Source: Nitrosomonadales bacterium
Lineage (GTDB): Bacteria > Pseudomonadota > Gammaproteobacteria > Burkholderiales > Gallionellaceae
Direction: 5' to 3'
Assembly (NCBI GenBank): GCA_016214695.1
Contig: JACRNY010000005.1
Coordinates: 80,372-144,371, forward strand
DNA: 64,000 nt
The position numbers and the translations under genes were made by a program. A model generated the notes under the pieces. It ran no database searches. It was not told where the DNA came from and was given only the letters and a program-made list of their open reading frames with translations. Shown in pieces: positions 2,152 to 57,112 of this stretch (position 1 is the stretch's first letter; each line of letters begins with the position of its first letter).

Positions 2152-3387
2152 TTATTTGAACGTCAAGCGATCAGGCTCGGGTTTGCACTTGTCAATCTTG
2201 GTATACCACGGCATCAAGATGAAGAATGCAAAGTACACCACTGAGAGCACTTGAGAGATCACTGTGTATGTTGGAGTTGCGGGCATCAGACCCAGATAGC
2301 CCAGGCCGATGAAGCTCACCACGAAGGCCGCAAGGAATCCCTTGAAGATCGGGCCGCGATAGCGGATCGACTTGACCGGACCGCGATCCAGCCACGGCAG
2401 GAACAGGACAGCAACCGCAGCGACGCCCATCGCGATCACGCCGGGGAACTGCGAACCGAACATCGGCGGTACTGCGCGCAGGATGGCGTAGTACGGAGTG
2501 AAGTACCACACCGGAGCGATGTGCTCAGGCGTCTTCATCGGGTTGGCCGGCACGAAGTTGTTGGCCTCCAGGAAGTAACCGCCCATGTCCGGCGCAAAGA
2601 ACACGATCGCGCAGAACACGATCAGGAACAGCACCACGGCCACGATGTCCTTCACCACGATGTACGGGAAGAAGGGGATGCCATCCAGCGGGATGCCATT
2701 GGCGTCTTTTTTCTTCTTGATCTCGATACCATCCGGGTTGTTGGAACCGACCTTGTGCAATGCGACGAGGTGCACGAACACGATGCCAACCAGCAGCAAG
2801 GGGATCGCGATGACGTGCAAGGCGAAGAAGCGGTTCAGGGTAGCATCGGAGATCACGAAGTCGCCGCGGATCAGCACGGACAGTTCGTTGCCGACGAAAG
2901 GCACGGAAGAGAACAGGTTAACGATCACCTGCGCACCCCAGAACGACATCTGACCCCAAGGCAACAGATAGCCCATGAAGGCTTCGGCCATCAGCGCCAG
3001 ATAGATCACCACGCCGATGATCCACAGCAGCTCGCGCGGCTTGCGATAGGAACCGTAGATCATGCCGCGGAACATATGCAGGTACACCACGATGAAGAAC
3101 ATGGAAGCGCCGGTGGAGTGGATGTAGCGGATCAGCCAGCCCGACTGCACATCACGCATGATGTACTCGACCGAGGCGAAAGCGATCAGCGCGTCCGGCT
3201 TGTAGCTCATGGTCAGGAAGATGCCGCTGACGATCTGGATGACCAGCACCAGCAACGCCAGAGAGCCGAAGAAGTACCAGAAGTTGAAGTTCTTCGGCGC
3301 GTAATACTTGGAAAGGTGGAATTCCCAGGTCTCGATCAGCGGAAAGCGATCATCGACCCAACCCAGCAAATTTTTCAGATATTTCAT
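2152..3387 (-). CDS. petB: Cytochrome b
   Basis: RYIHSTGASMFF, GYLLPWGQMSFWGA and RFFALH motifs; PVWY variant of the PEWY motif. Confidence 0.97.
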   Translation of the reverse strand: MKYLKNLLGWVDDRFPLIETWEFHLSKYYAPKNFNFWYFFGSLALLVLVIQIVSGIFLTMSYKPDALIAFASVEYIMRDVQSGWLIRYIHSTGASMFFIVVYLHMFRGMIYGSYRKPRELLWIIGVVIYLALMAEAFMGYLLPWGQMSFWGAQVIVNLFSSVPFVGNELSVLIRGDFVISDATLNRFFALHVIAIPLLLVGIVFVHLVALHKVGSNNPDGIEIKKKKDANGIPLDGIPFFPYIVVKDIVAVVLFLIVFCAIVFFAPDMGGYFLEANNFVPANPMKTPEHIAPVWYFTPYYAILRAVPPMFGSQFPGVIAMGVAAVAVLFLPWLDRGPVKSIRYRGPIFKGFLAAFVVSFIGLGYLGLMPATPTYTVISQVLSVVYFAFFILMPWYTKIDKCKPEPDRLTFK

Positions 3388-4364: not shown

Positions 4365-5114
4365 ATGAACGAACTTTCGCTTGAGAACCTGTCGACATAT
4401 TGGGCAACGCCCGTGGTGGCGACCAACATCGTCGTTTTTCTCAATCTTCTGGGCGCCCTCATACTCGGCCTGATCGTCGGTTACGAACGTTCCTACCACG
4501 GACGTGCCGCAGGCATGCGTACCTATGGTCTTGTCTGCATGGCCGCCGCCGCACTGACGGTCATCGCCGGCTATCCGAACTACTGGTTCGGCGGACAGGT
4601 AAACAGCTATCTGGCGGGTGACCCCACCCGCGTCATCCAGGGCATCGTCACCGGCATCGGCTTCCTTGGCGCGGGCGTCATCATGCGCGACGGGCTCAAT
4701 ATCAGCGGCCTGACCACCGCCGCTTCCATCTGGGCATGCGCGGCCATCGGCATCATGGTGGGGGTAGGGTTCTATGTGTCCGCGATAATGCTCACCTTGC
4801 TCGCCGCGCTTTGCATGATGTGGGTGTCCAAGCTGGAAAGCTGGCTGCCCTCGCGCCCGGCCATCGCCGTCACTCTGGAGTTCCAGAAGAACTTCGTACC
4901 GCAGGAGAGCACGCTGCGTGAAGTCGTCTACAGCAACGGCTACGAAATCGCCACCGGCTCTTTCGCCATCCGCTCCAGCAACGAGAAGCTGCAATGGCAC
5001 TTCGTCGCCATCGCCCTCAGCAAGAGCAGCGGCGTACCGATGAATGAACTGGCCAGCGGCTTGAGCACCCTGGAAGGTGTGGAAGACTTTTCGCTCTCAC
5101 ACGCGCGAAACTGA
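4365..5114 (+). CDS. MgtC/SapB family membrane protein
   Basis: GYERSYHGRAAGMRTYGLV, QGIVTGIGFLGAGVI and GLTTAASIW motifs. Start placed at ATG 4365 after AGGA (the ORF track starts at 4281). Confidence 0.85.
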   Translation: MNELSLENLSTYWATPVVATNIVVFLNLLGALILGLIVGYERSYHGRAAGMRTYGLVCMAAAALTVIAGYPNYWFGGQVNSYLAGDPTRVIQGIVTGIGFLGAGVIMRDGLNISGLTTAASIWACAAIGIMVGVGFYVSAIMLTLLAALCMMWVSKLESWLPSRPAIAVTLEFQKNFVPQESTLREVVYSNGYEIATGSFAIRSSNEKLQWHFVAIALSKSSGVPMNELASGLSTLEGVEDFSLSHARN

Positions 5115-8592: not shown

Positions 8593-8941
8593 CGTCCCTT
8601 TTAACCATGGGCGGGATGTTGCCGCCGCCGATGATATGAATGTGCAGATGAAACACTTCCTGCCCTCCGCCTTTGCCGCTATTGATGACGGTGCGAAAAC
8701 CGTTCTCCAGCCCCTGCTCGCGCGCCAGTTTGGGCGCCAGCAGCAACATCTTGCCCAGCAAGGCCGCGTGCGACTCGTCGGCATCCAGCAACGAAACCAG
8801 ATGCCGCTTGGGTACCAGCATGAAATGTACCGGAGCGACCGGATTGATGTCGTGGAATGCCAGCACTTCGGCATCTTCGTACACCTTTTTGCACGGTATC
8901 TCGCCGCGGACTATCTTGCAGAAAAGGCAGTTGTCGCTCAT
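8585..8941 (-). CDS. hinT: HIT family nucleotide hydrolase
   Basis: [12 protein letters not shown] and [12 protein letters not shown] histidine triad; usual hisE-hinT-tatA position. Confidence 0.9.
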
Positions 8942-49234: not shown

Positions 49235-49380
49235 GGTCACCTTTAGAAAATCCATTTTTCTGGATGAAACACTAGGAGCCGCGCAGCGAATGACGAGACA
49301 TACCAAATGGGTAGGCGAGGAATGAGCGAGCACGCGACAACGTGGTTCGCCAGAACAATGGATTTAATAAAGGTGTTACC
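49235..49380. mobile_element. ~146-bp MITE-like element between fliQ and fliR
   Basis: Imperfect ~35-bp TIRs: ggtcacctttagaaaatccatttttctgg versus reverse complement ggtaacacctttattaaatccattgttctgg. Confidence 0.7.
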
Positions 49381-50169
49381 GTGATCAGCTTCACCAGCGC
49401 GCAACTTCTAGCCTGGTTCGCCGCCTTCATCTTCCCGCTCGCCCGCATCCTCGCGCTCATCGCCAGCGCCCCGGTACTCGGCAACCGGCAGATCCCCGTC
49501 CGCATCAAGGTCGGACTGGCAGTGGCCATCACCATGATCGTCGCACCCACGCTGGACATCCCCACCGATCTCGACCCCGCATCCGCGCAAGGCGTGCTTG
49601 TCCTGATACAGCAGATCGTCGCCGGGCTGACCATGGGTTTCGCCATGCGTCTCGTCTTCACCGCCGTGGAGATGGCGGGCGACCTCGCCGGCATGCAGAT
49701 GGGCCTGGGTTTCGCCACATTCTACGACCCGCAGAACGCCACCTACCTGCCCGTGATCGCACAGTTCCTCGGCATCATCGCCGCGCTCACCTTCCTCGCC
49801 ATGGATGGTCATCTGTACATGCTGGCGGCGCTGGTGGAAAGCTTCCATTCCTTCCCCATCGCCGTGGGCACGCCCTCTGCCGGAGCATTCCGTACCCTGG
49901 TGGAATGGGGCGGCGCCATGTTCAGCCACGCGCTGCAACTCTCGCTCCCCCTGATCGGCGCGCTGCTCATCACCAATCTGGCGCTCGGCATCCTCACCCG
50001 CAGCGCACCGCAGCTCAACATCTTCGCGGTCGGCTTCCCGGTCACACTGGCGGTCGGCTTCATCGCACTGATGCTGGTGCTGCCTTTCCTCGCACCATTG
50101 CTGGGAACCTTCGTACGTGAAGGCCTGGATGTGATTGCGCGGGTGATGCAGCAGGCGGGGGGGCGTTAA
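49381..50169 (+). CDS. fliR: Export gate FliR
   Basis: GTG start; AGMQMGLGFA, DGHL and RSAPQLNIFAVGFP motifs. Confidence 0.95.
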   Translation: MISFTSAQLLAWFAAFIFPLARILALIASAPVLGNRQIPVRIKVGLAVAITMIVAPTLDIPTDLDPASAQGVLVLIQQIVAGLTMGFAMRLVFTAVEMAGDLAGMQMGLGFATFYDPQNATYLPVIAQFLGIIAALTFLAMDGHLYMLAALVESFHSFPIAVGTPSAGAFRTLVEWGGAMFSHALQLSLPLIGALLITNLALGILTRSAPQLNIFAVGFPVTLAVGFIALMLVLPFLAPLLGTFVREGLDVIARVMQQAGGR

Positions 50170-50228
50170 CGTGCAGCTAAGGGCGTCCCGGCGTCCTAAG
50201 GGAGCGAACTTGAGTGCAAGGATTAGGC
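50164..50228 (-). other. Terminal degenerate attC (65 bp)
   Basis: 78-bp family with an internal ~14-nt deletion and a mutated R'' (GCCTAAT); R' GTTAACG overlaps the fliR stop. Confidence 0.75.
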
Positions 50229-50516
50229 GTATTTGAACTCGATCTTATGGATCTTTTTTAGATCCACAGTCTGCTTGGCTTGCCATAGATCGTAATTGTC
50301 TTGCATCATCAACCAGCTTTCGGGGGTGCGTCCCAATGCCTTGGAAAGACGAAGAGCCATCTCAGGGCTCAAACCACTGGTTTCGTTCAAAACGCGATTA
50401 AGAGTCGAGGCGGCAACGCCCAATTTGAGGGCGAGCTCCCTGCAGCTGATTTCGTTCGGCGCAAGATAAACCTCTTGAATAAATGCGCCGGGGTGTGGCG
50501 GATTGTGCATAGCCAT
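50223..50516 (-). CDS. higA: HigA-family antitoxin (HTH_3)
   Basis: MAMHNPPHPGAFIQE, SPEMALRLSKALG and PESWLMMQDNYDL motifs. Confidence 0.92.
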   Translation of the reverse strand: MAMHNPPHPGAFIQEVYLAPNEISCRELALKLGVAASTLNRVLNETSGLSPEMALRLSKALGRTPESWLMMQDNYDLWQAKQTVDLKKIHKIEFKYA

Positions 50517-50590
50517 TAGTGATAATCCTCGTAATCTAAAACAAATGCGTTGCCGTTCTCAAATTCAAACGTGACGCGCCAATTACCATT
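50516..50590 (-). pseudogene. higB: 3' remnant of a HigB toxin gene
   Basis: Minus frame reads NGNWRVTFEFENGNAFVLDYEDYH*, and the TAA overlaps the higA ATG. The 5' part is replaced by the transposase element. Confidence 0.85.
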
Positions 50591-50599
50591 CGAAAAACC

Positions 50600-51409
50600 G
50601 GGGACAGACCACGGTTTCTCTCCTACTCCAAATCCAGTTCCCCCGATTCCGGCATTCCCGATTTTCGCGGACGCCCGGATTGACCCGGTGCAGCGCGCCT
50701 GCCGATCGTTTCGCTCACCGCTGATGCAAAGCGCTCACTCCCCAGCGCAAAGTTGCCATTAGTCGCCCGACGAATCTCATCCACCAGCCCTGGCTCCAAC
50801 TCATAACGAAAGAGATCGCGGTAAGCCGCCTGACGGGACACCGCGTCGCTACCCAGCGAGGTGTATAGCAGATGCGGTTGCACCAAGGCATCCATCTCCC
50901 CCTGCGCATTGGCCCGGTAGCTGGACCAGCGATACTCCGCTGGATGCGTCACCATATTCGCACGCACGGGGTTCAACTCGATGTAACGCTGGCATCCCAA
51001 AAGGTAATCTTCCTCTTGCACCGGGCACGACCGAAAGCGTCCTTCCCACAAAGTGCCGCTGCGCCGATAGACGCGATTCACATACTGCACATAACGCTGC
51101 CCCAGCGACTTCATCAAAGCACCGCCCGCATCAGCGCGCTCTGAAGAAATCAGCAGGTGAACATGATTCGTCATCAGCACATAAGCATGAATCCGGCAAC
51201 TGGACTTGCTGGCGTACTCGGAAAGCCAATCCAGATAGCGGCGATAGTCCTCATCGGCGAAAAAACAGGGCTGGCGATTATTGCCACGCTGGATAAGGTG
51301 GATAGGTACATTCGGCAATGCGATGCGGGCGCGGCGCGGCATGGCGAACTCCGACTGCGGAAGGACGAAGGGCAGTCTATCAAAGATCAGGAAACCGTGG
51401 TCTGTCCCC
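50600..51409. mobile_element. REP-flanked Y1 transposase element (RAYT/REPtron-like)
   Basis: Perfect 19-bp inverted ends ggggacagaccacggtttc (50600-50618) and gaaaccgtggtctgtcccc (51391-51409). Confidence 0.8.
50623..51342 (-). CDS. HUH Y1 transposase (REP-associated tyrosine transposase family)
   Basis: HLIQRGNNRQ, MTNHVHL (HUH), LWEGRF, YIELNPVRA and WSSY motifs. Confidence 0.92.
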   Translation of the reverse strand: MPRRARIALPNVPIHLIQRGNNRQPCFFADEDYRRYLDWLSEYASKSSCRIHAYVLMTNHVHLLISSERADAGGALMKSLGQRYVQYVNRVYRRSGTLWEGRFRSCPVQEEDYLLGCQRYIELNPVRANMVTHPAEYRWSSYRANAQGEMDALVQPHLLYTSLGSDAVSRQAAYRDLFRYELEPGLVDEIRRATNGNFALGSERFASAVSETIGRRAAPGQSGRPRKSGMPESGELDLE

Positions 51410-51482
51410 TATTATTAGTAAAAGAATAGAGCAAGGGCGAAACAAATTATGGCGCCTATGTGCATGGCTTGGTGCTCTCTAA
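51410..51482 (-). pseudogene. Truncated cassette: 5' end only (MHIGAIICFALALFFY*), no attC
   Basis: Begins at R' GTTAGAG; ATG at 51465; sequence breaks at the REP end. Confidence 0.6.
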
Positions 51483-51551
51483 CGTGAAGGTAAGGGGCTG
51501 CGCTTTAGCGCAGTCCCAGCCCGAAGGGCGAACTTGACCGCAGGGTTAGGG
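51477..51551 (-). other. attC (75 bp)
   Basis: CCCTAAC...GGTCAAG...CTTAC...GTTAGAG; related to the 78-bp family. Confidence 0.88.
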
Positions 51552-52094
51552 GTTTTCTTTGTATTGAGCAACAAGTTTTTCATATGCACTTCCGGTTGCA
51601 TCAAAACCAGCCTTTGAGCGCGAGCTGACTGTGAAAATGAGAAAGAATTCGCCTTCTTCACCATATGTCACACGTTCCCAGTTACCCGAACCTTTCGGAA
51701 AGAAAGTAAACGATTTGAATTTCTTTCCATCTGCCGTGACAAGTGGATTTACTTCTTGAATCTCAATACCGGGTGATTCCTTTAAAAAAATGTTTTTATC
51801 CCTCGCAATAAGCATTTCGAGTGTTTTGATCTCAGGGTCGCGAGGCTTGAAGATGGCCTTTGCGTACATAACGGTCTCGGCATTTGCAAAAGTAGCATTG
51901 TCGGGTGCCAATGCATTAACTTTGAAGTTGAAGCACTGTTCACGGTCTTGGTGCCACCCCGAAATCATAGCCAACTTGGGCCACCAGTAAAAATGCAAAC
52001 CCTGTTCACCAGGGACTGCAATTTTTTCTATCTCGGCTTGCGCAGTTGGCACAAGACTCAAAGCTGCAATGATGAGTAGTGAAAGAGTACGCAT
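51546..52094 (-). CDS. Cassette gene: secreted hypothetical protein (182 aa)
   Basis: True start ATG 52094; signal peptide MRTLSLLIIAALSLVPTAQA; stop lies in R''. Confidence 0.8.
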   Translation of the reverse strand: MRTLSLLIIAALSLVPTAQAEIEKIAVPGEQGLHFYWWPKLAMISGWHQDREQCFNFKVNALAPDNATFANAETVMYAKAIFKPRDPEIKTLEMLIARDKNIFLKESPGIEIQEVNPLVTADGKKFKSFTFFPKGSGNWERVTYGEEGEFFLIFTVSSRSKAGFDATGSAYEKLVAQYKENP

Positions 52095-52099
52095 ATAAC

Positions 52100-52168
52100 T
52101 CCTAACGTTCGAGGTAAGGGGCAATTTGCGGCCTGCCGCAAATTGTCCCATTGACTGATGGGTTAGGT
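52100..52168 (-). other. attC (69 bp)
   Basis: ACCTAAC...GTCAAT..caatttgcggc/gccgcaaattg..CTTAC...GTTAGGA. Confidence 0.88.
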
Positions 52169-52522
52169 GTCGCCTTTGCGAAGGGCAGCATTGAGTACCT
52201 CCTGGATGACTGCGGCACCGACAAGACGAGAGCCCTCTTGAACAGTGAAGCGAAAGCCGGGGAAGAGGCGACCGGCTTGGTATTCGGGGACCTGCAGCCA
52301 CACATTCGCAAGGACTGTCTCTCCCGGCGCCGCGGAGTCCTGACCGATGTACTCATGTGCAGCGTCATTCAGTGTGCCGGGCAGCCCGAAGTCGTGGCTC
52401 GGCCTGTAGCCAGACTGCGCCGGATGGGAGCGACCGCCGCGCTCTGTAGCCAAGAACTCAATCCTGGCCACGAGATCCGGCGGACGGACAGTTATGCGGG
52501 GAATTCTGGGCTCGGGCGACAT
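52163..52522 (-). CDS. Cassette gene: stand-alone EF-Tu domain III-like beta-barrel protein
   Basis: ARIEFLATERGGRSHPAQSGYRP...PGET...GFRFTVQEGSRLVGAAVIQEV resembles the EF-Tu C-terminal domain. Confidence 0.65.
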   Translation of the reverse strand: MSPEPRIPRITVRPPDLVARIEFLATERGGRSHPAQSGYRPSHDFGLPGTLNDAAHEYIGQDSAAPGETVLANVWLQVPEYQAGRLFPGFRFTVQEGSRLVGAAVIQEVLNAALRKGDT

Positions 52523-52570
52523 TGGAAGCTTTCGAGTGGGCAGGCGATGCTGCGCAACGGTTGCTGCGAC

Positions 52571-52648
52571 ACCTAACGTGCAGCTAAGGGGCGCGCCGAA
52601 GGCGCGTCCCAGCGACCAAAGGGAGCGAACTTGAGCGTAAGGTTAGGG
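52571..52648 (-). other. attC (78-bp signature family)
   Basis: CCCTAAC-CTTAC-GCTCAAG...CTTAG-CTGCAC-GTTAGGT. Confidence 0.92.
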
Positions 52649-53005
52649 GCCATCTACTGCCCCGACATCCATGCCATCATAGTCAAGAACTCCAAAGTGT
52701 TCGGCTACTTTATAGAGCTCCTGATTTCTCTGATTCAATGAATCAACAGAATGGGTTTCAATGCGATCTGCGCGTAGAAAAATTGTCTCTTGGTCTTCGT
52801 CTTCTGGAGCTGGCTCCAAAAAACCTATTACTTCATACCCGTTGTTTTCAAGATGGTGACCAATCTGAGTTAGTTTTTCTTTGTCACTATCCACAAAGAA
52901 AAATGACCACCTGCACGAATCGTCAATATCAAAGGGAGCTTTCCCCTCCTTATAAAGTTGCCGGGTGTGATCAAAGAACTCTTGTAATGTTTCGACTGTA
53001 ATCAT
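52643..53005 (-). CDS. Cassette gene: acidic RraB-like (DUF695-associated) protein
   Basis: WSFFF..LENNGYEV and terminal LDYDGMDVG pattern resemble RraB-like proteins. Confidence 0.55.
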   Translation of the reverse strand: MITVETLQEFFDHTRQLYKEGKAPFDIDDSCRWSFFFVDSDKEKLTQIGHHLENNGYEVIGFLEPAPEDEDQETIFLRADRIETHSVDSLNQRNQELYKVAEHFGVLDYDGMDVGAVDGP

Positions 53006-53011
53006 TGTGGC

Positions 53012-53070
53012 CTCTAACGTAAAGGTAAGGGGCGCGCGTTAGCGCGTCCCGCTTGACCGACGGGTTAGGC
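53012..53070 (-). other. attC (59 bp)
   Basis: GCCTAAC-CCGTC-GGTCAAG...CTTAC-CTTTAC-GTTAGAG. Confidence 0.9.
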
Positions 53071-53398
53071 TTGGGTCAAAAAGCAGAAACGCACGCCATG
53101 AACCCCAGCCCAGCAACACGGCGAAAATTAGTGAATAAACTTCCTGCCCAGAAACCATGCCGTAATCGAGAGACGCGGCGAGTGCCAAGACGGGAACAGC
53201 CCAACAAAGCAATTTCATTGCAACGTGCCCCCAAGACGGAAGGCGCTTAACTCGCGCTGCAACCAAGAGCACGCCGATTGCGGCAAACAATGCCGACACA
53301 ACAAAACCAACAATATCACCCTCGAACATACTGGGCGCAAACGCAGCGATCACAGCGCAATTAACAAGCAACGCGATAAGCCAGCCGAGTGTGCGCAT
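53039..53398 (-). CDS. Cassette gene: 4-TM membrane protein
   Basis: Four hydrophobic segments; the C-terminus extends into the attC. Confidence 0.75.
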   Translation of the reverse strand: MRTLGWLIALLVNCAVIAAFAPSMFEGDIVGFVVSALFAAIGVLLVAARVKRLPSWGHVAMKLLCWAVPVLALAASLDYGMVSGQEVYSLIFAVLLGWGSWRAFLLFDPSLTRRSSGTR

Positions 53399-53403
53399 AA
53401 GAA

Positions 53404-53485
53404 GCCTAACGTTTCGAGTTAAGCGACATCACGCATGACTGCTCGTTGCGCTCTGCCGCACTGTTTGCGTGATGTCTGCTTGAAC
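53404..53485 (-). other. Truncated attC (lacks R''): 75-bp attC-only unit
   Basis: 53411-53485 is identical to 55280-55354 and 55856-55930; it starts at the L'' box GTTCAAG. Confidence 0.85.
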
Positions 53486-53556
53486 GTGCAGCTAAGGGGC
53501 GCGCCGAAGGCGCGTCCCAGCGACCAAAGGGAGCGAGCTTGAGCGTAGGGTTAGCG
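53479..53556 (-). other. attC (78-bp family)
   Basis: CGCTAAC...GTTCAAG (non-canonical R' contributed by the downstream remnant). Confidence 0.9.
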
Positions 53557-53566
53557 GACATGTGCA

Positions 53567-53866
53567 TCATCGAGAATCAAAGAGGAAGACACCGAGAACA
53601 ATGATGCACAAAATCGCAAGCACGACACCAAGCCCTCGAACAACCCAGCCCGTGATAACCGCATACCTTGGGGTGTTCGTTCCATCGGGGTTGTTGAACC
53701 CCCCAGGCAAATCGTCTTCCAGCGTAGCCACCCAACCATTGATCAAAATTGCCTCCGCAACAATTAAGAATGCCCACCAAAACTTCAAACCTGAGATTGA
53801 AGAGAGGCCTGCTGCAAGCAACGTTATAACCAGCAACCAGATCGATGGCAAGAGCACTCGTTTCAT
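53567..53866 (-). CDS. Cassette gene: small 3-TM membrane protein
   Basis: Hydrophobic 99-aa ORF filling the cassette. Confidence 0.75.
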   Translation of the reverse strand: MKRVLLPSIWLLVITLLAAGLSSISGLKFWWAFLIVAEAILINGWVATLEDDLPGGFNNPDGTNTPRYAVITGWVVRGLGVVLAILCIIVLGVFLFDSR

Positions 53867-53869
53867 GTT

Positions 53870-53947
53870 CGCTAACGTGCAGCTAAGGGGCGCGCCGAAG
53901 GCGCGTCCCAGCGACCAAAGTGAGCGAACTTGAGCGTAGGGTTATGC
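53870..53947 (-). other. attC (78-bp family)
   Basis: GCATAAC...GTTAGCG. Confidence 0.92.
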
Positions 53948-54304
53948 CTAGTGTGAGACATATGCTTCTGTTCTGAGAAACCTGCAAAATTCATCTCGAA
54001 GGTCATCGTCTTCTTTGCCAAATTCCTTTTTGTGCTCCGCTAAATAAGCGAGATAAAGGTGGCCCTTGATTATCTTTAACTCGTTTTCGATGAGGAAGTC
54101 TCTACCTTTCACTCCATTATTAACCTGGTTGCTCAGCTCCTTTAGCGCTTCGTTCGCGGCCTTTTTAGTGAATGCTGATTCTGGAATATACCAAGCATCT
54201 TCTTCTGTTTTTGGTTTAGGCATGGGCTCGCAATAGTTTTTAGCGATTGCGAAATTACTTACAAGGAGCAGCGCAAGCCAACAGCAAATAACTCGTGACC
54301 TCAT
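53948..54304 (-). CDS. Cassette gene: secreted hypothetical protein
   Basis: Signal-peptide-like MRSRVICCWLALLLVSNFAIA; fills the cassette. Confidence 0.78.
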   Translation of the reverse strand: MRSRVICCWLALLLVSNFAIAKNYCEPMPKPKTEEDAWYIPESAFTKKAANEALKELSNQVNNGVKGRDFLIENELKIIKGHLYLAYLAEHKKEFGKEDDDLRDEFCRFLRTEAYVSH

Positions 54305-54835
54305 TTAATTTCTCCAAGAGGCATAACGTGGAGCTAAGGGGCGCGCCGAAGGCGCGTCCCAGCGACCGGAGGGAGCGAACTTGAGCGCAGGGTTAGGTGG
54401 TTCTCCAGCATTGATAGTTCTTTGCACCTCAGCCTCGTCGGATATATAGAAAATGGGTTCCATTTTTTTATGTTCTATTACCTCGGTTGCCCCATTGATA
54501 GTTACATTCACATAGCCGGGATGAGCTCTGGCGGGCCAATCATGTTGTGCCCATTCCCAGTATTGCGGATGATTCGTACTTCTGCCCGTTGCCTCGAATA
54601 GAGTTCTTCCGTGCTTACCTTTAACAATTAGAACCGTATCATCTACATCAAAAAGAGGGCTGTAATATCGTAGTTCAATAGTTACGTCCTCTCTCTGATA
54701 TCCGGTAGGTAGCGTTGGATACCAAACCGGTAATCTTGATGCTGGTGATAGCGTGAAGTCGGACTCCAATAACCCTCGTATCGGAGAACAGGCTGAGAAC
54801 AATACCAAGAATAGAAGGCCGGTGATAATCCTCAT
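54305..54835 (-). CDS. Cassette gene: putative lipoprotein that reads through its attC
   Basis: Lipobox LFSAC; the last ~31 codons come from the attC and the next cassette's leader. Confidence 0.75.
   Translation of the reverse strand: MRIITGLLFLVLFSACSPIRGLLESDFTLSPASRLPVWYPTLPTGYQREDVTIELRYYSPLFDVDDTVLIVKGKHGRTLFEATGRSTNHPQYWEWAQHDWPARAHPGYVNVTINGATEVIEHKKMEPIFYISDEAEVQRTINAGEPPNPALKFAPSGRWDAPSARPLAPRYASWRN
54321..54398 (-). other. attC (78-bp family)
   Basis: ACCTAAC...GTTATGC. Confidence 0.92.
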
Positions 54836-54841
54836 AACTTC

Positions 54842-54901
54842 ACCTAACGTCTGACATGAGGGGCCGCCGATAGGCGGTCCCTCTCGATGGATGGGTTGGG
54901 C
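54842..54901 (-). other. attC (60 bp, distinct type)
   Basis: GCCCAAC-CCATC-CATCGAG-AGGGACCGCC...GGCGGCCCCT-CATGTCAGAC-GTTAGGT. Confidence 0.88.
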
Positions 54902-54904
54902 ATC

Positions 54905-55267
54905 TTAGCCAAGACTGAGGCCCTTTTCTTTGGCTAGGCTGCGTGGGGATTGGCCAAATTCGGACACGATATCGGTTCGTGCCCCGGCCGCCAAAATGGC
55001 TTGTATGGCCTTTATGTTTTCTTGACGAATGGCAACGTGAAGAGGGGTTTCACCCATGTCGCCAACAGCATTGACGTCTGCGCCATGTTGAATAAGCAGA
55101 AGCGCTCCGTCAGTGTCCTTGCGCCAAAGAAGCACATGAAGCGGTGTATCGCCATCAACGTCAGTGCTACCAATATCAACCGCTTGATTCCCCAAATGCT
55201 CAGGAAACAGACAGTCAGAGGTCGATTGCAAAACCTCGTTTAGTGATCGGGCTGGCGTTTTACTCAC
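54905..55267 (-). CDS. Cassette gene: ankyrin-repeat protein
   Basis: GDTPLH, GETPLH and GQSP ankyrin motifs. Confidence 0.88.
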   Translation of the reverse strand: MSKTPARSLNEVLQSTSDCLFPEHLGNQAVDIGSTDVDGDTPLHVLLWRKDTDGALLLIQHGADVNAVGDMGETPLHVAIRQENIKAIQAILAAGARTDIVSEFGQSPRSLAKEKGLSLG

Positions 55268-55272
55268 GAGAT

Positions 55273-55366
55273 GCCCAACGTTTCGAGTTAAGCGACATCA
55301 CGCATGACTGCTCGTTGCGCTCTGCCGCACTGTTTGCGTGATGTCTGCTTGAACGAGGGGTTCGAC
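55273..55366 (-). other. attC (94 bp, aadA-like L boxes GTTCAAGC/GCTTAAC)
   Basis: GTCGAAC-CCCTC-GTTCAAGC..gacatcacgca/tgcgtgatgtc..GCTTAAC-TCGAAAC-GTTGGGC. Confidence 0.9.
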
Positions 55367-55482
55367 GTGAGAGATTGCGGCCTGGCTGTGATAAATGAAG
55401 CAGCGCGTTCATCTCTAAAAGCGCGGACATTTGATGTACCGCTTCTTCTCATTCATCCTTCGCCGCGATCTATCGCGTTGAA
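55279..55482 (-). mobile_element. 204-bp cassette with no conventional gene (only a 54-aa attC-overlapping ORF, 55288-55452)
   Basis: Bounded by crossover points GTTCAAC and GTTGGGC. Confidence 0.8.
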
Positions 55483-55554
55483 CGTGCAGCTAAGGGGCGC
55501 GCCGCAGGCGCGTCCCAGCGACCGCAGGGAGCGAACTTGAGCGTAGGGTTAGAG
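55477..55554 (-). other. attC (78-bp family)
   Basis: CTCTAAC...GTTCAAC. Confidence 0.92.
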
Positions 55555-55845
55555 TACATCAAGCTTTGACAAATGTTCTTTGTACCTAGCGGCATGTTCC
55601 AATAGCTCCATGTTCTCTGCTGCGAATAGAAGTTCTTGCCAAAAAAGATGCTCTTCTGCGTACCCACTATGACTTTCACCAATGCCTTCTAATGAATCTA
55701 AAGCAAGCTCAAATTCGGTATGGTGAAGATACTCGATGTATTGCTCTTCCCACTCCGCAGGTGTGCTGAGCACGACCGGCAGAAAATATCTTGCTGCTGC
55801 AAGATGACGCAACGAAGTTTTGAGTTCATCGGGGTATGGTCTCAT
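55549..55845 (-). CDS. Cassette gene: small acidic helical hypothetical protein (immunity-protein-like)
   Basis: 98 aa, Glu-rich (EYLHHTEFELALDSLEGIG); stop lies in R''. Confidence 0.7.
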   Translation of the reverse strand: MRPYPDELKTSLRHLAAARYFLPVVLSTPAEWEEQYIEYLHHTEFELALDSLEGIGESHSGYAEEHLFWQELLFAAENMELLEHAARYKEHLSKLDVL

Positions 55846-55848
55846 AAA

Positions 55849-55942
55849 CTCTAACGTTTCGAGTTAAGCGACATCACGCATGACTGCTCGTTGCGCTCTG
55901 CCGCACTGTTTGCGTGATGTCTGCTTGAACGAGGGGTTCGAC
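55849..55942 (-). other. attC (94 bp) of the first cassette
   Basis: Same sequence as 55273-55366 apart from the cassette-dependent R' (GTTAGAG). Confidence 0.9.
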
Positions 55943-56017
55943 GTGAGAGATTGCGGCCTGGCTGTGATAAATGAAGCAGCGCGTTCATCTCTATTCGCCG
56001 CGATCTATCGCGTTGAA
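55855..56017 (-). mobile_element. First cassette (163 bp): copy of 55279-55482 with a 41-nt deletion
   Basis: Identical except for loss of the segment at 55418-55458. Confidence 0.85.
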
Positions 56018-56040
56018 CGTAAAGTAGACACCCTAAAAAA
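56012..56040 (-). other. Putative attI site
   Basis: Last GTT crossover (G/TTCAAC) before intI, preceded by a 5-nt spacer and degenerate L box TGTCTAC; no attC palindrome upstream. Confidence 0.55.
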
Positions 56041-56116
56041 TGCCGAGAAAGGCACCTTCGAGACGTACAATCTGGCATCAACTCTGCAATGCCTTGTTTT
56101 TGTTGAAGGAGAAATT

Positions 56117-57112
56117 ATGGTAACCCCTAAAATTTCCGATAAAAGCACCACGGCGCAACCTCCCAAATTATTGGATCAAGTCCGCGATAAGTTGCGGGTG
56201 AAGCACTACAGCATTCGCACCGAACAAGCCTATACGGGCTGGATTAAACGCTATATCTATTTTCACGGCAAGCGCCACCCCAAAGACATGGGCGCGGCAG
56301 AGATAGAGGCTTTTCTGACAAATCTGGCTGTCGAGGGCAATGTTTCCGCGTCCACACAAAACCTGGCCAAGAGTTCATTGTTATTCCTCTATCGCGAGGT
56401 TCTTGAAATTGAATTGCCCTGGCTGGATAACGTGACACAGGCCAAAGTACCAAAGCGCTTGCCGGTTGTCCTGACGGTATCGGAAGTTCAGAGCGTGTTG
56501 TCGCAATTGAATGGCACGCATTTGTTGATCGCATCGTTACTGTACGGCGGCGGGATGCGTTTGATGGAGGCGGTGCGCTTGCGCGTCAAGGATGTGGATT
56601 TCGAGCGGCGCGAGATTCTGGTACGCGAGGGCAAGGGGTTCAAGGACAGGGTGACGATGTTGCCGGAAACGATCATCGATTCGCTCAAGGCGCACATGGC
56701 AAGGGTCAAAGCATTGCATGCGGAAGATCTGGCGCAGGGCTATGGTGAGGTGTACATGCCATTCGCGCTGGACAAGAAATATCCAACAGCCGGAAGAGAC
56801 TGGAGCTGGCAGTATGTTTTCCCGTCAAAGAATCTGTCGGTCGATCCGCGTTCGGGCAAAACGCGCCGCCATCATGTGGATGAAAAAGGTGTACAGCGTG
56901 CGGTGAAGCAGGCCGTGCGCGATGCAGAGCTCACCAAACCCGCCACGCCGCACACGCTGCGCCATTCCTTTGCCACGCATCTGTTGCAATCGGGCTACGA
57001 CATCCGCACCGTGCAGGAGCTGCTCGGCCATTCCGATGTTTCCACCACCATGATCTACACGCATGTGCTGAACAAGGGCGGCAGAGGTGTGGTGAGTCCG
57101 CTGGACAGGTGA
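56117..57112 (+). CDS. intI: Integron integrase (331 aa)
   Basis: RBS GAAGGAGA; [32 protein letters not shown] and TTMIYTH motifs; integron-specific insert [29 protein letters not shown]. Confidence 0.97.

Follow-up and report, generated by a model that had tools for sequence, protein, structure and literature searches.

The window analysed here is a 64,000-nucleotide (64-kb) stretch of contig JACRNY010000005.1 from a Nitrosomonadales bacterium, in which the cassette array of a chromosomal integron spans approximately positions 50170-55850. The integron integrase gene (intI) adjoined a series of cassettes that all lay on the minus strand and were separated by attC sites. The most distal cassette was a higBA toxin–antitoxin cassette, and this distal slot was occupied by an element that was oriented like the cassettes and consisted of a gene for a Y1/HUH tyrosine transposase between two terminal inverted repeats (TIRs). 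On one side of the element the antitoxin gene higA was preceded by only the end of the toxin gene higB, and on the other side there was a stub of a different cassette gene (Table 1). An earlier note on this DNA had described a perfect 19-bp inverted repeat bracketing an intact HUH/Y1 gene, a higB gene reduced to its last 24 codons and overlapping the higA start codon, and a 16-codon cassette stub without attC. Each of these observations was reproduced, by two exact repeat copies, by the profile matches to Y1_Tnp and HigB, and by the sequence of the stub, respectively.

Table 1. Features of the element, its flanks and the neighbouring integron and chromosomal genes (positions in the window)
Feature	Position	Strand	Evidence or remark
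fliR	49342-50169	+	Pfam Bac_export_1, 243 bits
attC of the last (higBA) cassette	50167-50236	-	abuts fliR stop codon; blocks shared with attC 51479-51550
higA antitoxin gene, intact, 97 amino acids	50223-50516	-	TIGR02607 antidote_HigA, 103.7 bits (cut-off 47.7)
higB remnant, last 24 codons and stop	50516-50590	-	Pfam HigB-like_toxin, profile positions 69-91 of 91
Outer extension of downstream (right) end, GGTTTTTCG in gene orientation (plus strand cgaaaaacc)	50591-50599	-	kept in relatives
Downstream TIR, 19 bp, GGGGACAGACCACGGTTTC	50600-50618	+	exact match
Gene for 239-residue Y1/HUH tyrosine transposase (TIRYT)	50623-51342	-	Pfam Y1_Tnp, 48.9 bits (cut-off 23)
Leader between upstream repeat and ATG, with conserved block ..TGATAGACT (CTGCTAGACT in relatives)	51343-51390	-	kept in L004, L005, L008
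Upstream TIR, 19 bp	51391-51409	-	exact reverse complement of 50600-50618
Outer extension of upstream (left) end, TAATAATA in gene orientation (plus strand tattatta)	51410-51417	-	gives stub reading frame its stop
Stub of a different cassette: core GTTAGAG, ATG, 16 codons of small hydrophobic peptide	51418-51483	-	sequence
attC of next cassette (its gene 51546-52097, minus strand)	51479-51550	-	97% identical to L004 attC
intI integron integrase gene	55880-57112	+	TIGR02249, 493 bits (cut-off 265), alignment starts at residue 97

Terminal inverted repeats and ends of the element

The 19-bp repeat occurred exactly twice in the window; the number did not change when up to three mismatches were allowed, and no match was found in 100 shuffles. 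Repeat finding gave longer arms of 26 nt with 88% complementarity. Beyond the 19-bp core the two ends were unlike each other, yet each was conserved end by end. The GAAAACC side at 50591-50599 was conserved beside the downstream repeat in the comparison loci L008-L011, L086, and L100, and in L004, L008-L011, L019, L086, and L100 the upstream end had AATA or AATAATA directly before GGGGAC. When the element was compared by blastn with elements in unrelated contexts (L004, L005, L008, and L100), the similarity was bounded by 50591-50595 on one side and 51413-51424 on the other; similarity to L008 ended at 50591, and 51417 was the limit for L005 and for a contig of metagenome run X7. Related elements in runs X5 and X7 ended at 50594 and 51414/51417. 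By these boundaries the conserved unit extends from about 50591 to 51417 (approximately 827 bp), slightly beyond the span of the 19-bp arms.

The repeat had no GTAG head and was not self-palindromic, and there was no GTAG-headed hairpin in the flanks. Folding was compared with that of shuffled sequences. The upstream end did not exceed them (z of +0.3 to +0.5); at the downstream end, with its outer extension, a hairpin formed, but a weak one (z -1.6 to -2.9; -6.3 to -7.7 kcal/mol). Hairpin ends were also sought by asking whether the inner GG/GA dinucleotide of the repeat covaries with the outer flank, and this candidate was rejected because a check of the relatives by eye gave inconsistent results. 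A consensus promoter scan of the leader found no sigma-70 consensus in 51343-51390; the leader may nevertheless contain the promoter of the transposase gene. A literature search for the motif GGGGACAGACC returned unrelated eukaryotic primers only.

Transposase and class assignment

The motifs of the transposase were intact: NHVH (residue 59), LWEGRF (residue 98), and YIELNP (residue 120). The Y1_Tnp match covered residues 11-122 only, with approximately 115 amino acids beyond it, and residues 136-239 had no Pfam match even at E<=10. A PDB sequence search with the single transposase sequence gave nothing at E<=0.01. There were more than 8000 homologues, the nearest of which (75-95% identical) were encoded in metagenome-assembled genomes (MAGs) of Nitrosomonadales, Gallionella, and Rhodocyclales. 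The best NCBIfam match was REP_Tyr_transpos, and the canonical family of transposases associated with repetitive extragenic palindromes (REPs), or REP-associated tyrosine transposases (RAYTs; NF047646), scored 68.2 bits, below its equivalog cut-off of 80. The score for the IS200 TnpA family (NF033573) was 20.5 bits, below the cut-off of 55, and the motif was YIELNP, not Y---Q.

Quentin et al. (2018; PMC6006769) gave Y---NP as the signature of class 2 TnpA-Y1 proteins, and their Table 1 lists NHVH (or NH[YF]H), W[EQ], YIELNP, and a median length of 238 residues for subclass 2.1, which it equates with group 1 of the RAYTs in Bertels et al. (2017; PMC5581495). Quentin et al. regard subclass 2.1 as the probable equivalent of the "TIRYT" proteins described by Di Nocera et al. 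(2013; PMC3733652), which are Y1 transposases flanked by TIRs in place of REP hairpins, in structures named TIRtrons. Many TIRtron repeats start with GGGGWSAS, and in some genomes the repeat is also found as single, dimeric, and grouped gene-less copies (PMC3733652). Subclass 2.1 is present in approximately 15% of sequenced strains, with a mean of 1.9 copies per genome and 49% identity between copies (Quentin et al., PMC6006769). Proteins of the class extend C-terminally past the Y1 core, and similarity of this C-terminal domain to helix-turn-helix (HTH) domains (Bac_DnaA_C, HTH_23, or HTH_28) has been reported.

Because the motifs, the 239-residue length, and the repeat head (GGGGACAG, which fits GGGGWSAS) match the published class, we assigned the element at 50591-51417, from its sequence, as a TIRtron encoding a TIRYT (TnpA-Y1 subclass 2.1, RAYT group 1). 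It shared with described TIRtrons the TIRs in place of GTAG hairpins, the low gene copy number, and moderately abundant solo, dimeric, or grouped repeats in some genomes. It differed in its context, being situated in an array of integron cassettes where a toxin gene is truncated by a deletion beside the element. The C-terminal HTH-like domain reported for the class gave no Pfam match here, but may yet be present. The architecture is the same as that of TIRtrons already described and does not represent a new kind of system. The earlier note had named a RAYT-like element with REPs and had treated a Y1 enzyme with TIRs as an anomaly. Neither description was retained: the repeats are not canonical REPs, and TIRs are the defining feature of the published TIRYT/TIRtron class (PMC3733652, PMC6006769).

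Truncation of higB and loss of adjoining DNA

The higB remnant at 50519-50590 (minus strand) translates to NGNWRVTFEFENGNAFVLDYEDYH, and its stop codon at 50516-50518 shares one base with the ATG of higA. Thus, although HigA was complete, the full-length HigB of a HigBA type II pair was absent, and the N-terminal 66 codons of higB were found nowhere else in the window. HigA was 95% identical to protein P0121, which adjoins an intact 90-residue HigB in L132; the intact higB-higA DNA of L132 was 91% identical over the part retained in the window. Five contigs in four other metagenomes (X3, X4, X7, and X8) matched the window to exactly 50590 and then continued with intact higB codons (..GRWSIWV|NGNW), diverging from the window exactly at 50590|50591. 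HigB is thus dead, and HigA is an intact orphan antitoxin. An orphan higA also occurred in L133 (2150-2520), where a HigA 93% identical to that of the window had neither higB nor a TIRtron and unrelated sequence stood upstream of ATGGCTATG; this is an independent toxin loss with the antitoxin kept. In L132 (1620-1850), a 75-residue open reading frame (ORF) beside the intact higBA lay between the arms of another inverted repeat, aaaaGGGGACAGAtttatttt / aaaataaaTCTGTCCCCtttt; this repeat has the GGGGACAG head too, but there is no Y1 gene.

On the upstream side, the stub (minus strand) consisted of the core GTTAGAG at 51477-51483, an ATG at 51463-51465, and 16 codons, MHIGAIICFALALFFY. Its reading frame ended in a TAA contributed by the end of the element, and no attC followed it. 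The start of the stub is a cassette boundary, as alternative attC junctions in other contigs confirmed. Cassettes in L004 began similarly (GTTAGAGCGCACCCCATG), and the DNA of the stub had no match in the 213 fetched loci except in contigs of the window itself. Downstream, the element was thus joined to higB at codon 67, and upstream it was joined to an unrelated cassette gene at codon 16. The stub and the higB remnant were never neighbours in any intact higBA locus, and the stub was never found without the element in contigs of the four metagenomes that contained the locus. These results showed that the flanks are parts of two different, non-contiguous cassettes and that DNA was lost next to the element. 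From higB, the first ~66 codons are missing together with all sequence upstream, where its promoter would normally lie; also missing are one attC or more and the rest of the stub gene. Since both breakpoints coincided with termini of the unit that are conserved between genomes, the DNA loss is tied to the element.

Both junctions were spanned in metagenome contigs with no differences and even depth, by a 3326-bp contig in X1, 2068-bp contigs in X3 and X4, and a 1004-bp contig in X2. These contigs had been assembled independently from four groundwater metagenomes, and all four metagenomes holding the locus showed identical junctions. In run X2, in which the locus was covered up to ~1200x word depth, the contig breaks fell in higA/higB and attC and not at the ends of the element.

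Related elements and dispersed repeats

Close homologues of the element lay in non-homologous contexts: in another integron (L004), between tonB and a cyclase gene (L005), and between pgm and hemY (L008-L011). L116, from Halieaceae isolate WMMBA4, contained three 967-bp repeat-to-repeat units with 94-97% mutual identity and different flanks. These three units lay within 8 kb (L116:1-6290), encoded a protein 60% identical to that of the window, and represent a multicopy, insertion sequence (IS)-like state of the class. In L004 (3400-4860), two truncated 5' copies, each with an upstream end and 22-72 codons, stood upstream of the complete element, and each started with its own upstream end, NAAWAATA-GGGG(AC). 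The arrangement in L004 is either a real local rearrangement or MAG assembly noise. Because the contexts differed, because L116 had three copies, and because L004 had extra truncated copies, it was supported, on comparative grounds, that in this class the whole unit moves. Downstream of the element in L004 there was a 3' remnant that, read from the sequence only, resembled an IS3-type transposase gene.

A scan with GGGGACRGACCACGRTTT over one genome per species gave at least 120 loci. The matches listed included Janthinobacterium, Massilia, Duganella, Gallionella, Sideroxydans, Accumulibacter, Aromatoleum, Pseudomonas, Chromatiaceae, Halieaceae, and tubeworm symbionts, and copies of the repeat were widespread in beta- and gammaproteobacteria. 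Among these listed matches, only about one-quarter had a tblastn match to the Y1 gene, and the remainder were solo repeats or, very often, inverted doublets 23-58 nt apart. The geometry of the doublets was that of the gene-bearing unit, with a short spacer replacing the gene. A separate doublet contig in the metagenomes of the window consisted of repeat, 14 nt, repeat, and TATTA, and had a depth of 39.1 versus 37.7 for the genome. Joints that skipped 771-774 bp were considered as excisions of the element and were rejected, because each was a distinct repeat-spacer-repeat doublet that had flanks of its own and a spacer of 13-40 nt.

Many relatives carried, outside each end, either two to four short stacked fragments matching the 10-14 nt at the outer edge of the repeat (AATAGGGGAC.. 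/ ..GTCCCCTATT) or whole extra repeats (L008:3770-3960 and 4710-4860; L145:7895-7950 and 8745-8810; L108:2395-2415 and 3205-3250). The element in the window had neither. The stacked partial copies could be footprints of repeated end cleavage or of slippage. The exact 18-mer core of the repeat was present once each in L023, L029, L045, L056, L083, L093, L106, and L107, which are from MAGs or genomes labelled Acidobacteria, Phycisphaerae, Microlunatus, Streptomycetaceae, Saccharibacillus, Saccharibacteria, and Ruminococcus; these single copies may represent real transfer, chance matches, or binning contamination.

Conservation of the repeat core and age of the insertion

Independent homologues for which both flanks were available were examined for the 18-mer at <=3 mismatches on both sides of the gene. 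It was present at all seven loci with 75-85% protein identity to the window, at 12 of 15 loci with 65-75%, at 15 of 22 with 58-65%, and at 3 of 27 below 58%. The 18-nt core was thus kept across beta- and gammaproteobacteria, even at ~58-60% protein identity. The constancy of the core among homologues indicated that it is under functional constraint, and the identical arms are therefore uninformative on the age of the insertion. Perfect repeat identity was accordingly rejected as a clock. The insertion had previously been called recent, and this part of the earlier interpretation was given up: in addition to the conservation of the 18-mer, the same junctions were present in four metagenomes and no empty site was found. 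For TIRtrons, the exact ends of the unit and the 18-nt core kept across the two proteobacterial classes are new details.

Probable insertion with adjoining deletion and alternative explanations

We consider it probable (approximately 0.77) that a TIRtron inserted in the distal cassette position of this integron and that higB was truncated with loss of adjoining DNA. In this process, the element would have inserted into one of the two cassettes, by single-strand cleavage and rejoining at the repeat ends with the HUH metal site and Tyr120, following the IS200/IS605 and TnpA-REP paradigm. The DNA up to the other breakpoint may then have been lost either by a transposase-mediated deletion from an end of the element or by homologous recombination between two directly oriented copies. 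By the same paradigm, the gene-less doublets elsewhere in the genome were probably spread by the same enzyme. Because only toxin-first deletions are viable, the loss of higA first being lethal, the asymmetry of a lost toxin and a kept antitoxin is expected.

The insertion with an adjacent deletion and the movement of the element as a unit, both proposed in the earlier note, are in agreement with the flanks from different cassettes, the cut in higB exactly at the end of the element, the three full copies in L116, and the relatives at other genomic sites, the support for movement being comparative. The element did not stay at one position in all relatives, and it was not without other copies, since solo copies and doublets were found in the same population and in other genomes. 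The search for intact higBA relatives succeeded in part: L132 and the X3, X4, X7, and X8 contigs fixed the breakpoint in higB, but they did not define the size of the deletion. The proposal that such elements can remove addiction modules goes too far for a single case in which the toxin alone was lost and the antitoxin was kept, a pattern that reflects survivorship as much as a property of the element.

Several observations weigh against the insertion and deletion proposed here. The support for transposition is comparative and not direct. The transposase gene was single-copy in the population (its depth equalled that of the flanks), as expected for a mostly sedentary class. Neither an empty site, a circle, a polymorphic junction, nor an element-free fusion of stub and higB was present in the metagenome contigs, which were Logan contigs, in which rare variants are invisible. 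The searched loci and metagenome contigs did not include the ancestral array, in which the stub cassette would be intact and higBA would come next. Because Y1 elements do not duplicate their target, the junctions give no sign by which a simple insertion could be recognised. Finally, single-strand structure at the ends was slight, being a weak hairpin downstream and none upstream; single-stranded DNA (ssDNA) hairpin chemistry for this element is therefore an extrapolation.

The first alternative is that the gene is a canonical RAYT, domesticated, immobile, and vertically inherited, that its repeats are ordinary REPs, and that the cuts in the cassettes arose from unrelated integron or illegitimate recombination. 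Canonical RAYTs (E. coli YafM and P. fluorescens SBW25) are likewise single-copy Y1/HUH proteins with a Y---NP motif, their genes are flanked by inverted short repeats, and gene-less doublets are also found genome-wide. In accordance with this, the transposase gene of the window was single-copy in the genome, its best NCBIfam match was REP_Tyr_transpos, many genomes contained its repeat in scattered solo copies and doublets in the manner of REPs and of REP doublets forming hairpins (REPINs), and Bertels et al. place the clade as RAYT group 1. However, the score lay below the equivalog cut-off, the protein is ~75-90 residues longer (239 versus 151-165), and the repeat unit lacks GTAG and is not itself a hairpin. 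Whereas the repeats of canonical RAYTs are species-specific, that of the window was conserved across orders. Moreover, two breakpoints on exact conserved termini are not expected from an unrelated deletion, and the close homologues in non-homologous contexts and the three near-identical full copies in L116 are at odds with an immobile gene. We therefore regard this alternative as quite unlikely.

A second alternative is that the element inserted cleanly onto a fusion of stub and higB that an earlier, unrelated deletion had made. Toxin loss does occur without an element, as the orphan higA of L133 demonstrates, and Y1 elements produce no target duplication by which such an order of events could be excluded. 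However, the insertion would have had to strike the single phosphodiester bond of the older junction, and no element-free fusion contig was found despite the depth of run X2, which makes this order of events very unlikely. An assembly or binning chimera that joined a transposase contig to the cassettes through repeats is extremely improbable, because, although the window is probably from a MAG and attC repeats do break contigs in X2, independent contigs from X1, X2, X3, and X4 span both junctions and the X2 breaks lie away from the ends of the element.

Comparison with other elements and significance

With the IS200/IS605 family (IS608 and ISDra2), the element of the window shares the HUH/Y1 core, and no target-site duplication is expected from either. 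In that family, both ends have subterminal hairpins, which lie on one strand, and there are no inverted repeats, TnpA has ~150 residues and Y---Q, and the elements are usually multicopy and often carry tnpB; the window has a perfect inverted repeat and a 239-residue protein with YIELNP. IS1111-attC elements and group IIC-attC introns likewise reside in arrays, in fixed orientation and near attC cores, but their enzymes (a DEDD transposase and a retro-element, respectively) are unrelated to that of the window.

Integron arrays are known to collect insertion sequences, and this locus shows that they also collect HUH-type elements. An IS200/IS605 element (ISHahl1) is situated at the end of a Halorhodospira array, a distal location that it has in common with the element of the window, and ssDNA-dependent elements tend to cluster (PMC7923331). 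In the literature searched, TIRYTs or TIRtrons were mentioned only in the surveys of 2013 and 2018, and neither contained an activity test. The present locus and its relatives give base-exact ends for one clade and the same unit in unrelated contexts, and the joining of both ends to broken genes is the footprint expected of an active or recently active element. Toxin-antitoxin cassettes are thought to stabilise chromosomal integron arrays; here, such a cassette was disarmed without cell death, the toxin being lost and the antitoxin retained. Current concepts are unchanged by this result, and the value of the locus is that it provides, with its defined 27-28-nt ends and intact gene, a good substrate for TIRYT biochemistry.

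Association of related elements with integrons

Several relatives of the element, or copies of its repeat, lay beside an integron integrase gene or a remnant of one. The element followed directly after the R'' core of a cassette attC in L004 and after an attC R'' core in L108, in which cassettes and a 111-bp intI remnant lay beyond it. intI was reduced to its last ~40 codons in L019 and L076, in L109 an internal piece of intI (70 residues) lay ~2 kb away from a truncated copy of the element, L151 had an IntI fragment with strong attC-like sites nearby, and in L191 the element adjoined the 3' end of intI. L145 contained a different integron (IntI 51% identical), in which the element stood a few codons into a cassette gene, ~45-95 nt after GTTAGAT. 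In the window, L004, L108, and L145, the element had cassette orientation and its upstream end was ~20-95 nt from an attC core.

From these loci, it could be proposed that GGGGACAGACCACGGTTT-clade TIRtrons are active, integron-preferring elements that insert near attC cores and then erode arrays, including cassettes, toxin genes, and intI. Folded attC sites would perhaps expose ssDNA and thereby draw insertion near the cores in cassette orientation. If this were true, chromosomal integrons and the toxin-antitoxin cassettes thought to stabilise them would be pruned regularly by a class that is generally regarded as sedentary. We consider this proposal doubtful. Integron-associated relatives were a minority (~5-10% of ~100 loci), and there was no general enrichment of attC around 100 TIRYT loci (0.92 sites/10 kb versus 0.72 in control loci) with a crude detector, based on core pairs and folding, that recovered approximately half of the attCs of the window itself. 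Most relatives lie outside integrons.

In L145 (6300-9714), the TIRtron, whose protein was 69% identical to that of the window, separated ATGAAGGTTCTTGGGATT from an ORF starting ..LFLFGAGASFGSG that had a weak SIR2_2 match (23.4 bits). This arrangement resembles a simple insertion into a cassette gene, only a few codons from its start, and is a further point in favour of mobility of the class. In L019 (1-522), L108 (2413-4552), and L076 (7018-7237), which represent two Gallionella and one gammaproteobacterial MAG, the last ~40 intI codons that were left had 78-95% protein identity to IntI of the window, and the nearby TIRtron end or solo repeat was 65 bp-1.2 kb away. L108 also contained cassettes with attC between the intI remnant and the element, and the upstream end of its element abutted a GTTAGGC/GCCTAAC core.

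Integron setting and other features of the array

The window sequence was recovered from groundwater metagenomes, and the host is probably a groundwater betaproteobacterium of the Gallionellaceae or another member of the Nitrosomonadales. The closest integron was that of L004, from a Nitrosomonadales MAG, with 85% identity in IntI and 97% in attC. The attC of the higBA cassette and that of the next cassette had the blocks TAACGTG.AG.TAAGGG and GCGAACTTGA in common (repeat families D7/D8), and further attC-like repeats were present at ~52573-52649, ~53012-53069, and beyond along the array. The attC at 51479-51550 recurred in many contexts in run X2, a deep metagenome, where alternative contigs matched it and then diverged exactly at 51479/51481, the recombination point.

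The intI ORF as called has 410 codons, whereas its L004 homologue has 331 residues. With the profile alignment beginning at residue 97, translation probably starts around codon 80-97 instead, a position that would leave more space for attI and Pc. The other cassettes (51546-55850) encode a putative lipoprotein (51546-52097), RraB-like and ankyrin-repeat proteins, a protein with a weak match to EF-Tu domain 3, and several ORFs without a Pfam match. The GC content of these cassettes was 44-55%, compared with 60-65% in the chromosome on either side.

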